In this document: positions 8,969-12,303 of the stretch, one piece after another
Position numbering within the stretch: the first letter of the stretch is position 1
Layout of the letters: each line of letters opens with the position of its first letter
Virus record (IMG/VR): IMGVR_UViG_3300044705_000115
Coordinates: 66,044 to 130,043 of that record
Strand: one strand, 5' to 3'
DNA length: 64,000 nucleotides
Origin: a virus
Position numbers and translations under genes: made by a program
Notes under the pieces: model-generated
Seen by the model: only the letters and a program-made list of their open reading frames with translations
The model's database searches: none
Told to the model about the DNA's origin: nothing

Positions 8969-10000
8969 TCACGTCGCGCACAAGATGTACTCGTGGCTCG
9001 TGGCCTTGGTGTGGTCGTTCTCCTTGCTGGTGATGTGGCCGTAGCGGATCGCGTGCATCTGCACCGTCCGCCCGCGCTCCCTCATCAGCTCTGCAAGCTC
9101 CTCGGCGTCAACGCCCTTGCCCCCGACCGAGACGACCCAGGCGGCGATGTGCCCTGCTGCATCGAAGACCTCGGCGAGGTGCCGCCAGCCTCCGGCGCGG
9201 CTGAAACGGCTCGGGCCTGTGGGCGGCGTTTCGTTCTGCAGGATGCCGTCGAGCGCCCAGTAGTTGCGCTCGTACGTCTCGGTCTCCGGGTAGGGAGGGT
9301 CGAGGTAGAGGACATCCGGCGTCTCGGGAAGCAGGTCGAACAGGCCCAGCACATCGGCCCGGAACATGCGGTTGTCCTGGCCGTTGGAGAAGACCCCCTG
9401 CCCCATCGCAGCGAGGGCGAGCAGCATCATCCTCCGGGGCCTGGTCAGCGCTGGCACACGGTCGATCTGAGTTGGCGTCATCGCGTCCCACTCGCCCTTC
9501 CGCGCGTGGCTGACGCCGAGCGAGCGCACCTGGCCCCACATCGAGAGCCGAGTCGCAGTCTTCAGCATCAGCGAGCGCATCAGCGCCGCCCGCGCGGGGT
9601 TCTCGTACTCCAGCGCTGCCTTGGCGATCTGGGCCAGCAGTTCGCGGGCGCCGTCGGGCCACGGCAGGTCCTTAACCGGCGGGAGCCACCAGTCGTTGAC
9701 GTTCTGCTCGAGCGCAATCGCAGCGTCGCTCTCGGTCAACTTCACGCTGTCGTTCTCGACGAACGCCTGGCCCACAGCCTCGCTGCGGCGGCTGACATCG
9801 TTGGCGAAGACGCGGTAGCCCAGGCGCTTGCCCGTCAACGCCACCGAGCATCCGCCAGCGAAGGCATCGCACAGCACGTACCCCTGGCCGGGCGGGAAGC
9901 CAGCCTCGGAGATGGCAGCGAAGATCGGCTGGGCCAGCTCACGCTTGCTGCCGAGATACTGCGGCAAGGCATCGAGGCAGGCCAACGCTGACTTAGGCAT
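8969..10000 (-). CDS. DNA adenine methyltransferase (alpha/D12 class)
   Basis: YLGSKRELA (motif X), DAFAGGCSV (motif I), YLDPPY (motif IV), C-terminal EYILC. Confidence 0.9.
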   Translation of the reverse strand: MPKSALACLDALPQYLGSKRELAQPIFAAISEAGFPPGQGYVLCDAFAGGCSVALTGKRLGYRVFANDVSRRSEAVGQAFVENDSVKLTESDAAIALEQNVNDWWLPPVKDLPWPDGARELLAQIAKAALEYENPARAALMRSLMLKTATRLSMWGQVRSLGVSHARKGEWDAMTPTQIDRVPALTRPRRMMLLALAAMGQGVFSNGQDNRMFRADVLGLFDLLPETPDVLYLDPPYPETETYERNYWALDGILQNETPPTGPSRFSRAGGWRHLAEVFDAAGHIAAWVVSVGGKGVDAEELAELMRERGRTVQMHAIRYGHITSKENDHTKATSHEYILCAT

Positions 10001-10268
10001 CCATCCACTCCGCCGTCCGCAGAAGAACCGCTGCTGCCTGGATCAACTCCTCGCGCGTCTGCGACCAGTCGGCGTGGTCGCACATCGGCGTCGGGCACTT
10101 GCAGCGCCCCTTCCGCCACGCTTTCAGCGCCTCCTCGACCTCGTCTTCGGCGGCGGCGATACCGAGCCGCACGCCGTCCCTCGTCGGCGGATAGCCGCTC
10201 GGGTGAACCTCGTCCTGCCGAACCATCTCGGCCATGACCTCGCCGAACAGGTCGAGCCTGTCAGCCAT
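9993..10268 (-). CDS. MazG-like NTP pyrophosphatase (all-alpha)
   Basis: AEDEVEEA..REELIQAAAV acidic motif pattern; CKC..CDH insert. Confidence 0.65.
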   Translation of the reverse strand: MADRLDLFGEVMAEMVRQDEVHPSGYPPTRDGVRLGIAAAEDEVEEALKAWRKGRCKCPTPMCDHADWSQTREELIQAAAVLLRTAEWMDA

Positions 10269-12303
10269 CAGGGTCTCTCCTTTCGTCGCAGGCCGCGATC
10301 CGCGACCCGATGAAGCTGATCACCGGCACGGTCACTGCGTCGCCCATCGCGGCGTAGCGGTGCGCGTCGGGCTGTGGATCGTGCGGGACGCCGCCAGCGC
10401 CGTCGGTGACCAGCATGTCGGCCTCGGTCGGCGGGTGGGAGTTGTTGCGCGGGTTCGACCGCAGCGTCGGTGCGGCGTCAGCCACGAGCGGCGTGCCGCG
10501 GCCAGTGCCGTCCTCGCTGGCATCGTGGCCCTCGGAGGTCAGCGCGTGTGCGACCGCGCCGGCGCCTGTCTCGTCGCAGGTCGGCGCGACCTCTGCCTGA
10601 ACGCCGATTCCATTCGCCCCCTGCTGCGCGGTGCGGATCGAGTGAACCGGACCGACAGCGTGCGGCTTGCCAGTCATCAGGCCGAAGGACTGGCCATCGT
10701 CGCGGACACCGATCCCTGCATCGCGGAGACGGATGCGCCCTTCGGCGTCGGGCGATGGCGTCAAGGAGTCGCCCGAGCGCCCGATCGCGTCGGTATGGAT
10801 GCACGACGGCTCGACGGCAAGCGTTCCGTTCAGCCTGCCATCGACGAGCGTGCGGGCATGGTCAGCCTCTTCCCAGCTCTCGTAGTCCTCGTCGTGGTTT
10901 GCAGCATGGCGCTTGGTGTAGGCGACCAGCTCCCAGTTCGGCGGATACCCGAGCTGGTAGTAGCTCGGCGTATCGGCGAGGCTCGGGCCATCAGGGATCG
11001 TCCAGCCATCCGGGAAGCCCTGCAGCCGCTCGCACTCGGTCGGCGTGAGACGCCGCACCTGAGAGCCAGCGGCGAGGCGCGTGTCCTGGTGGCTGCCGGG
11101 ATCCGCTGACAGCGACATCGCCTGATCGACCTCGCGCACCTCCTCGCGCTGGTTCTGGACGAAGGCGGTGGGGGCGGCCGCGCCCTTCCCGACCCGAAGC
11201 GCGGGCGACATGTCATCGAGGGGCGCAGCGTCTCCCTGGGTGCCGTCGAAAGCGACGAGGTTGACATCGTCCTCCTGCCGTCGACCCGGCTCTGAGACGC
11301 CATCGCCTGTCGCGCTGCCGCGGGTCAGCGGCGCAGCTACCTCCGGCGATCCTTCGACGATCACGGCATCGTCCGCGTCGGAGGTGACGCCCTTCTGGTA
11401 GCGCTTGGTCAGCGCCGGGGCGATGGTGAGTGGCTGGCTATCGGTGCGCGACCCCGGCTTGCCGTTGCGGTCCAGGGAGCCGTTGGCCAGCAGCGTGTCG
11501 GCTACGTCAGGCTCATCTGCGACGAGCCATCCGGCCTCGGCGTCTGGGAGGTCGGCGCCGCTGTTCCCGAATCGGCTGGTGAGGGACTGGCTGACTCCTC
11601 CGGGGGTACCGACTGCGCCAGCGCCCTTAGGCTCGCCTCGAGGGCGGCGGGCAGCGCCCGGTCGCGCTTCTGCGCTCGCCGCAGAATCCCCCTCGCCGCC
11701 CGCCCGCTCAAGTAGAACCTCGGATGGCACCGGGCCACCAAGACAGCCGACAACGAACAGGCGATGGCGTCGTTGGGGGACTCCGAAGTGTTGAGAGTTG
11801 AGGGTGCGCCATACGGCCCCTCCCCACGGCCCAGCGGCCACACCTGAGCGTGTCCATCCTCCGGCGGGAACATGGCACTCGGCGCCCACGAAGGCGCCCA
11901 GGACGAGTGCGAAGTCCAGGCCGCCGTTCGAGGAGAGGGCACCTGGCACGTTCTCCCAGAGGGTCCAGCGAGGAACGAGGGAATTGCGGAGTCGGATGAA
12001 GTGCCAGAAGAGGCCCGAGCGCTCGCCTTCGAGTCCACTGCGCTTGCCGGCGACGCTGAGGTCTTGGCAGGGCGTTCCTCCGACGAGGCAGTCGATCGGG
12101 TCGAGGGCATCTGGATCAAGCTCCGTGATGTCGGGGTGGACAGGGATGTCGGGCCAGTGGCGGCCTAGGATCGCGCGGCGCTGCGGAAGCACCTCGCACA
12201 TCCACCGCACGTCGAAGCGGGCGGACGCACGATGAAGGCCGAGCTCGAAGCCGCCAACGCCGCTGCAGACCGAGCCGACGCGCAGTTTCTCCTGGTCGGA
12301 CAC
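10261..12303 (-). CDS. DNA (cytosine-5) methyltransferase with expanded variable regions
   Basis: Motif I CSGVGG, IV GGTPCQDLS, VI WENVPG, VIII PQRRHRLF, IX RRLTPTECERLQGFPD, X AMGDAVTV. Confidence 0.93.
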   Translation of the reverse strand: MSDQEKLRVGSVCSGVGGFELGLHRASARFDVRWMCEVLPQRRAILGRHWPDIPVHPDITELDPDALDPIDCLVGGTPCQDLSVAGKRSGLEGERSGLFWHFIRLRNSLVPRWTLWENVPGALSSNGGLDFALVLGAFVGAECHVPAGGWTRSGVAAGPWGGAVWRTLNSQHFGVPQRRHRLFVVGCLGGPVPSEVLLERAGGEGDSAASAEARPGAARRPRGEPKGAGAVGTPGGVSQSLTSRFGNSGADLPDAEAGWLVADEPDVADTLLANGSLDRNGKPGSRTDSQPLTIAPALTKRYQKGVTSDADDAVIVEGSPEVAAPLTRGSATGDGVSEPGRRQEDDVNLVAFDGTQGDAAPLDDMSPALRVGKGAAAPTAFVQNQREEVREVDQAMSLSADPGSHQDTRLAAGSQVRRLTPTECERLQGFPDGWTIPDGPSLADTPSYYQLGYPPNWELVAYTKRHAANHDEDYESWEEADHARTLVDGRLNGTLAVEPSCIHTDAIGRSGDSLTPSPDAEGRIRLRDAGIGVRDDGQSFGLMTGKPHAVGPVHSIRTAQQGANGIGVQAEVAPTCDETGAGAVAHALTSEGHDASEDGTGRGTPLVADAAPTLRSNPRNNSHPPTEADMLVTDGAGGVPHDPQPDAHRYAAMGDAVTVPVISFIGSRIAACDERRDPDG
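11502..12110 (-). CDS. Overprinted alternative-frame ORF resembling the M.EcoHK31I beta polypeptide
   Basis: +1 frame inside the C5-MTase. Segment TLNTSESPNDAIACSLSAVL..FYLSGRAARGILRRAQKRDRALPAALEASL; GGAG about 10 nt before ATG 12110. Confidence 0.6.
   Translation of the reverse strand: MPSTRSTASSEERPAKTSASPASAVDSKASARASSGTSSDSAIPSFLAGPSGRTCQVPSPRTAAWTSHSSWAPSWAPSAMFPPEDGHAQVWPLGRGEGPYGAPSTLNTSESPNDAIACSLSAVLVARCHPRFYLSGRAARGILRRAQKRDRALPAALEASLRALAQSVPPEESASPSPADSGTAAPTSQTPRPDGSSQMSLT

Follow-up and report, generated by a model that had tools for sequence, protein, structure and literature searches.

Same-strand overprinted genes are known from small viruses and phages, in which two frames are read and synonymous variation is suppressed in the older gene. 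Among bacterial enzymes such an arrangement occurs in M.EcoHK31I, a DNA methyltransferase of E. coli HK31 with the specificity YGGCCR. In two reports, its β polypeptide is described as encoded entirely within the α gene, on the same strand but in a different reading frame, and β has motif IX, with motifs I–VIII, the target recognition domain (TRD) and motif X in α (PMC2836561, PMC3404938). Activity is described there as requiring association of both chains, and the N-terminal 42–67 residues of β as dispensable (PMC2836561). M.AquI is reported to consist of two chains split in the variable region, one with motifs I–VIII and the other with part of the TRD and motifs IX–X (PMC3404938). In mammals, the products of the overlapping XLαs/ALEX frames are reported to bind each other (PMC1186735). 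Here we describe an open reading frame (ORF) nested in the +1 frame of a C5 cytosine DNA methyltransferase (C5-MTase) gene of a virus (IMG/VR record IMGVR_UViG_3300044705_000115). The 64,000-nucleotide (nt) stretch analysed, positions 66,044 to 130,043 of the record, is called the window; the record of 130,043 bp has direct terminal repeats and is rated complete. A first-pass annotation, made from the letters of the window, had proposed an overprinted second gene resembling EcoHK31I β, and the α/β layout that it stated agrees with both reports (PMC2836561, PMC3404938).

We conclude with high confidence that the nested ORF is a selected coding sequence and not an artefact of guanine-plus-cytosine (GC) content. 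Its +1 frame is under purifying selection, the ORF with its start and stop is conserved, and the module that it encodes occurs in natural fusions. We propose, with a probability of about 0.68, that the locus specifies a two-polypeptide C5-MTase in which the nested product is the partner subunit of the main product, here called α. The main product is a single 680-aa ORF that matches PF00145 (C-5 cytosine DNA methylase; E 1.6e-42, 146.5 bits, above the curated cut-off of 22), and motifs I, IV, VI, VIII, IX and X are all in its main frame. Motif names follow the usage of the C5-MTase family (IV PCQ, VI ENV, VIII QxRxR, IX RxLTxxExxRLQGFP, and X). In α they lie at residues 78–80 (IV), 117–119 (VI), 177–181 (VIII), 416–432 (IX) and 649–669 (X). 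An alignment of α homologues has PC (78–79), ENV (117–119), QRR.R (177–181) and RRL..E (417–423) invariant and Q80 nearly so. The nested ORF lies wholly within this gene (10261..12303) at an offset of +1 nt, (12303-12119) mod 3 = 1. The 205-codon ORF of the first-pass annotation is present as described, open from a TTG at 12119 (11502..12119, minus strand), and the peptide segments quoted in that annotation are correct.

GC content is 0.64–0.70 in the window and 69% in the MTase gene itself, so long ORFs in alternative frames are expected. Synonymous codons were permuted within the gene, keeping the main protein and its codon usage, and by this measure openness alone was at chance level (P 0.77, 0.70 and 0.52 for an open +1 frame in three sub-regions). 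To score the encoded sequence, a profile was built from the corresponding frame in 80 other viral loci, the window left out. The +1 frame of the window reached 141.2 bits, and 100 synonymous permutations gave 30.3 ± 6.4 with a maximum of 49.4. Across genes, 79 of 79 (window included) beat all 100 of their own permutations, with medians of 154.8 versus 43.9 bits. A further set of homologues was selected on the main frame alone (568 were confirmed and the best 80 used, with 32–46% identity to the window), of which 78 were classifiable, with motifs IV, VI and VIII found in one frame by regular expression; L132 and L161 were dropped. The +1 translation matched the nested profile in all 78 (E <= 5e-30), and frames 0 and +2 of the same 78 genes gave no match to it.

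Two spacing types were distinguished, with 41–44 codons (type i) or at least 60 codons (type ii) between motifs VI and VIII. The +1 frame was stop-free between motif VI and the 50th codon after motif VIII in 32/32 type i and 46/46 type ii genes; the chance of openness per region was 0.27–0.43. The +2 frame was open from 10 codons before to 50 codons after motif VIII in 0/32 type i and 2/46 type ii genes. Loci at 38–47% GC have nested ORFs of 130–175 codons with a stop-free core, and the nested ORFs across the family are about 130–175 codons long. Stop avoidance in homologues, a check raised by the first-pass annotation, was found.

Pairwise identity in the +1 frame was.53/.63/.76/.59/.48 over five blocks (window stretch FVVGCLGGPV...RGEPKGAGAV; n=32 including the window), compared with.19/.28/.19/.17/.14 in the permutations and.45/.61/.35/.26/.22 in the main frame. 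Over the final ~50 codons conservation was higher in the +1 frame than in the main frame, which over the same bases is low-complexity, as the first-pass annotation had remarked, and poorly conserved; beyond the nested stop the +1-frame identity dropped to baseline. Nucleotide entropy by +1 codon position 1/2/3 was 0.84/0.71/1.56 bits over 31 codons around GILRRA (the regular-expression anchor was present in 65 of 79 genes), and motif IX, the control in 44 genes, gave 0.54/0.38/1.65 in the main-frame phase. Such a wobble pattern in the phase of the nested frame is as expected if the nested frame is translated. The strongly selected part of the nested ORF is its last ~60 residues, and the N-terminal part is weakly conserved. 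In type i genes upstream of motif VI, the +1 similarity equals the permutation expectation, and KTSPE there is the +1 reading of ENVPG. Within the conserved module the window keeps 6/6 invariant and 12/14 near-invariant alignment columns.

The nested ORF also has a recurrent start. Its first ATG lies 0–9 codons after the upstream stop in most loci. Counted from the Q of motif VIII, an ATG occurs at -92 or -94 in 47 and at -16 in 70 of the type ii loci (n=100), and at -74 to -77 in 34 and at -8 in 20 of the type i loci (n=52); in most loci the stop downstream falls between +54 and +73. A strict Shine-Dalgarno (SD) sequence, scored as GGAG, GAGG or AGGA at -16..-5, precedes the first nested ATG in 33/51 type i and 53/97 type ii loci; the background rate at the remaining codons of these nested ORFs was 15% and 14%, respectively (about fourfold enrichment). 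In the window, the GGAG that the first-pass annotation had placed about 10 nt before ATG 12110 is found with a spacer of exactly that length, and ACGGAG-N10-ATG (GGAG-N10-ATG at 12124-12108) has identical spacing at the nested-ORF start in L009, L014 and L016. ATG 12110 lies at -112 from the Q of motif VIII, 19 codons after the upstream stop, and is the counterpart of the Met that opens the nested product in relatives: VI–VIII spacing in the window is of type i, yet this ATG matches the type ii N-terminal start after allowing for an 18-codon difference in spacing. The nested tail of the window extends 90 codons beyond motif VIII, where 55–70 is usual. Coordinates are collected in Table 1.

Table 1. 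Positions of the C5-MTase gene, the nested ORF and their parts in the window.
Feature	Position	Strand	Basis
α, C5 cytosine DNA methyltransferase, 680 aa	10261..12303	-	PF00145 match
Motif X region (RYAAMGDAVTVPVISFIGSRI), main frame	10297..10359	-	translation and alignment
Motif IX (VRRLTPTECERLQGFPD, α 416–432), main frame, beyond the nested ORF	11008..11058	-	translation and alignment
Nested +1 ORF (β-like), 202 codons from ATG 12110 to TAG 11504-11502	11502..12110	-	ORF list, sequence
Predicted helices of the nested product, residues 68–73, 84–97 and 103–115 counted from 11954	11610..11753	-	AlphaFold2 (AF2)
Dual-coding core: +1 frame TLNTSESPNDAIACSLSAVLVARCHPRFYLSGRAARGILRRAQKRDRALPAALEASLRALAQS; main frame motif VIII, VLLER and low-complexity linker	11610..11798	-	conservation, entropy
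Motif VIII (QRRHR), main frame; +1 reading PNDAI	11761..11775	-	translation and alignment
GGAG, candidate SD site, 10-nt spacer to ATG 12110	12121..12124	-	sequence; recurs in relatives

Within α, residues ~433–648 (window ~10360-11007, minus strand) form a ~200-residue insertion between motifs IX and X, a stretch that in most homologues is short. Downstream of the C5-MTase gene, a D12-class N6-adenine DNA methyltransferase (PF02086, E 2.4e-13) is encoded at 8969-10000 (minus strand), so that the phage has two DNA MTases in a row. A 91-aa ORF between them (9993-10268, minus strand) has a sub-threshold match to DUF7183 (E 0.0032).

The nested ORF is a family-wide feature of phage and prophage MTases and not a peculiarity of one phage. 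A tblastn search with its last 82 aa matched 75 phage records at E <= 0.01, and those listed were all under C5-MTase or hypothetical genes; the hosts of these phages include Vibrio, Mycobacterium, Escherichia, Akkermansia and Ruminococcus. Four of five inspected records (Rctr41k, Vibrio phage 1.104.O, Akkermansia phage Chantilly and Ruminococcus phage NatCom_23091) have the match at the same +1 offset in an annotated MTase. In the fifth, Mycobacterium phage Thibault, the match is a separately annotated protein, gp104 (hypothetical protein, L006:1369-1614). Aligned nested peptides have 16 invariant columns in common. A six-peptide profile matched 6808 of 7999 scored proteins of 39–184 aa and 5202 of 8000 of 185–2000 aa, counted as 90%-identity clusters, the scored candidates being those that shared most words.

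In IMG/VR, 583 of 592 pattern stretches were confirmed. Among the best 80 of these loci, chosen by the alternative frame, motif VIII (QRRxR) lies 73–85 nt upstream of the +1 core and one frame back from it (alt-1) in 76; L001, L004 and L005 have the same +1 offset and the same arrangement of motif VIII and core, as does the window. A degenerate DNA pattern for GILRRAEKRGK found at least 120 stretches in contigs of one genome per species. Of these, 80 genome loci were read, with motif VIII in frame (alt-1) in nearly all; they belong to Alpha-, Beta- and Gammaproteobacteria, Clostridia, Bacillus, Acidobacteriota, Chloroflexota and Verrucomicrobiales, and further from Planctomycetia, Fusobacterium, Actinobacteria, Gemmatimonadaceae and Saccharibacteria. 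An Alistipes locus matched the GILRRAEKRGK pattern, but its core was not found by the script.

Thibault gp104 is a stand-alone helical module, and the surrounding MTase region is interrupted by the HNH endonuclease genes gp103 and gp106. Mycobacterium phages Omega (gp127) and Lucky2013 (gp113) have a 159-codon stop-to-stop +1 ORF (L002/L003:1649-2125), unannotated in both records; against the nested-ORF profile it gives E 1e-50 in Omega and 6e-52 in Lucky2013. The Omega MTase is also split, into gp127 (motifs I–VIII) and gp128 (TRD-IX-X).

The layout of the window, with motif IX in the main frame and a nested stop soon after the helices, was found in 59/80 viral loci chosen by the alternative frame, 43/80 viral loci chosen by the main frame and 49/80 genome loci; these calls were made by regular expression, and the remainder are other layouts, cut loci and cases that the patterns missed. 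In L055, L059, L012, L026 and L019, the main frame has motifs I–VIII and X without IX, and the nested ORF carries the helical module followed by VRRLTPxECERLxG (motif IX). At least 40 protein clusters of ~190–215 aa resemble the β-like ORF of L055, with 57–74% identity. The nested frame continues through TRD-IX-X in P0149, P0193 and some 25 further proteins, and L046 and L084 have three ORFs each. No in-frame copy of the module was detected in the α proteins (best of 81 at E 0.12). Independent evidence for a physical link of the module to motif IX and the recognition domain comes from the natural fusions.

Two variants have the frame roles swapped: in P0178 (252 aa, named DNA cytosine methyltransferase at NCBI) and L049, motifs I–VI are in frame with the module and VII–VIII are in the nested frame, and the L049 ORF (133-1524) extends on through TRD-IX-X. 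These layouts could be real variants or assembly indels. L075:2267-3946 is a 560-aa ORF in the nested frame that runs from the module through TRD-IX-X to a motif-I-like segment (GSLFDGIGGF...SEIEPFP), which suggests a tandem or circularly permuted arrangement.

Judged by layout, the family is of the EcoHK31I kind, large and without annotation, and M.EcoHK31I is the closest described system. The small ORF of the window (11502-12110) lies wholly inside 10261-12303 in another frame, as reported for EcoHK31I β, and its N-terminal part, weakly constrained where the C-terminal part is strongly so, parallels the β N-terminus reported to be dispensable. The relatives L055, L059, L012, L026 and L019 have the partition reported for M.EcoHK31I, with motifs I–VIII and X in α and IX on the β-like chain. 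Unlike in M.EcoHK31I, motif IX of the window is in α, as the first-pass annotation had noted, and the nested ORF ends before it. The partition reported for M.AquI is that of P0149, P0193 and L046/L084, so it is these fused-type relatives and not the window that resemble M.AquI; α of the window is one chain from motif I to X. In the AquI-like relatives, the helical module opens the second chain, whose overlap with the first gene is about 100 codons or longer. Compared with overprinted viral genes generally, this nested gene is conserved across hosts of many bacterial phyla and appears to serve the enzyme within whose gene it lies.

Searches were made for a described family or fold. For the nested product and related ORFs, Pfam, PHROGs and NCBIfam gave no family, the sole match being a marginal one of one relative to phrog_16143 (E 0.033). 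A PDB sequence search with the nested-module profile gave 0 matches at E <= 10, and Foldseek with the β model gave a best E of 8.7. VIA-align wide with a fused-type model returned generic helical hairpins (best Z 5.5 over 43 residues, root-mean-square deviation 2.2; DNMT3A at Z 3.9); both fold searches were uninformative, and ESM Atlas neighbours of the module were unnamed, mostly viral clusters. In a protein search with the β-like ORF of L055, 277 of 616 candidates had E <= 1e-5, and the name EcoHK31I was absent among the 120 matches listed. A literature search, in which few subscription journals were covered, returned no conserved nested ORF in C5-MTase genes beyond EcoHK31I; work on AquI was also met.

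The nested product and its complex with α were modelled. With an 81-sequence alignment, AF2 gave a predicted local distance difference test (pLDDT) of 93–97 over residues 81–110 of the window product (mean 65.5), and the N-terminal part was disordered when modelled alone. The model is consistent with the folded helical domain that the first-pass annotation had read from the sequence, its predicted helices being in the C-terminal part. A complex model of α (680 aa) with nested residues 28–118 scored 0.78, and the best of three controls scored 0.00. The mark for this score was reached by 58/80 solved complexes and 2/110 mismatched pairs, counts that are only rough, the author's own alignments having been used. 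The runs share at least 53% of contacts, with a partner pLDDT of at least 63. The predicted interface on α comprises residues 135–158, 166–176 and 198–202 (around VII–VIII), 413–427 (IX) and 660/664 (X). The complex model supports α–β binding, subject to a caveat of codon-coupled covariation that is taken up below. The AF2 model of the fused-type P0193 (27 sequences) had a mean pLDDT of 54, too low to place the module after motif VIII.

In the mechanism that we propose, the 680-aa α carries every catalytic and recognition motif, and ribosomes that start at the internal SD and ATG (GGAG 12124-12121, ATG 12110) would read the +1 frame of this mRNA as a second protein. Constraint on the N-terminal ~110 residues of that protein is weak, and its C-terminal ~60 residues make up a conserved module with three short predicted helices (SLSxVL, YLSxxAxxGILRRAxxR and LPxxLxxAL, in that order). 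The module shares its nucleotides with motif VIII of α and the linker that follows, α having no in-frame copy of it. The small protein is predicted to dock where the catalytic and recognition domains meet, by the VII–VIII strands, the IX helix and the X helix, and it may thereby complete or stabilise the active enzyme, by analogy with what EcoHK31I β does for EcoHK31I α. From the data above we infer that the nested ORF is translated in this phage and that its product binds α and is needed for methylation, and the first-pass interpretation of a two-subunit phage enzyme is partly supported.

Several observations weigh against this proposal. The best main-frame identity of any relative to the window is 46%; the window has no close relative, so that selection in its own lineage is judged from conservation across the family. 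Translation of the nested ORF, in this phage or in relatives, is a prediction from the sequence signal. ATG 12110 is uncertain as the start actually used, and another may serve. The usual type i start lies ~75 codons before motif VIII, where the window has no ATG, and +1 stops are usual upstream of motif VI in type i genes, the frame being open there in 3/32; a GTG at -56 (GGGAG 10 nt upstream) and ATG 11873 are possible alternatives. The window departs from the near-invariant consensus at 2/14 columns, with A for C at 87 and S for A at 108. In the complex model α is poorly modelled (pLDDT 50), and many top contacts pair residues from the same or neighbouring nucleotides, for example α 154–157 with β 37–39. 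Covariation between the two alignments that is coupled through shared codons could pass for contact, a possibility left unaddressed by the controls; the predicted contacts with motifs IX and X are free of the shared-nucleotide artefact itself but may derive from it. The role of EcoHK31I β in supplying motif IX is inapplicable to the window because IX is already in α.

Two other accounts of the arrangement are excluded. A sequencing frameshift or pseudogene is contradicted by the intact main frame from motif I to X and by the same arrangement in >150 independent loci, and a pair of compensating frameshifts within one polypeptide by the overlap of the module with motif VIII itself. A more substantial alternative, which we regard as unlikely, is that the nested product is real and functions independently of binding to α, for example as a regulator of MTase expression or timing, or as an anti-defence factor that uses the MTase gene as a scaffold. 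A small helical hairpin with basic residues (RRAxKRGK) could bind nucleic acid, no family or structure assigns the module a function, and the complex score may be inflated by the covariation described above. However, many relatives join the module covalently to IX or TRD-IX-X of the same enzyme, and the module is confined to this MTase family at a fixed place relative to motif VIII. Ribosomal frameshifting out of the α frame would instead yield an isoform of motifs I–VI plus the helical module and no free small protein. Natural ORFs with that connectivity exist (P0178 and the long L049 ORF), and amino-acid conservation is weak in the N-terminal part of the nested product; we nevertheless hold this to be improbable, given that the nested 5' end is tightly bounded by a stop, that its ATG has the SD enrichment given above and that an isoform without motif VIII would be catalytically incomplete.

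The product might also be a relic in this phage, superfluous once motif IX was fused into α, with an ORF kept open only through high GC. The chance-level openness in the window, its 90-codon tail and the missing canonical type i start would fit this, but most genes share the window layout of a main-frame IX, and such genes have the full conservation signal, and the window retains both the module residues counted above and 141 bits; a relic is accordingly very improbable. Least credible of all, and already contradicted, is the reading that there is no second product and that the +1 pattern is a by-product of MTase motifs and GC-rich codon usage, or a conserved nucleic-acid element. It would account for the similarity upstream of motif VI that permutation reproduces (KTSPE over ENVPG). 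It does not agree with the ~110 bits lost under permutations that preserve protein and codon usage, with the stop-free loci at 38–47% GC, or with a +1 frame that outdoes the main frame in conservation and has wobble periodicity in its own phase.

Taking the family as a whole, we tentatively suggest, at slightly less than even odds, that the proposed two-polypeptide enzyme of the window belongs to a very large, phylum-spanning subfamily of phage and prophage C5-MTases that is obligately multi-chain. A stretch of ~90–100 codons would be read in two frames, as VII–VIII and as a three-helix hinge module, with both needed. M.EcoHK31I would be one sampled member, and the partitions seen (that of the window, EcoHK31I, AquI-like, and I–VI plus module) would have arisen through indels that moved TRD, IX and X from one frame to the other, the dual-coding core between them being ancient and staying in place.

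Bacteria and their phages offer few same-strand nested genes for which selection is proven, and annotation pipelines discard such genes. The present nested family comprises thousands of protein clusters, yet is without a Pfam, NCBIfam or PHROGs model. If the nested product is a subunit, heterologous expression and specificity assignment (REBASE-type work, epigenome tools and phage engineering) may hinge on a second protein that annotations lack, and recoding or codon-optimising such MTase genes would silently destroy it. Some members are cultured and tractable, among them Mycobacterium phages Omega and Lucky2013. The family is a natural series of modules moving between frames, in which the evolution of overlapping genes is directly testable.

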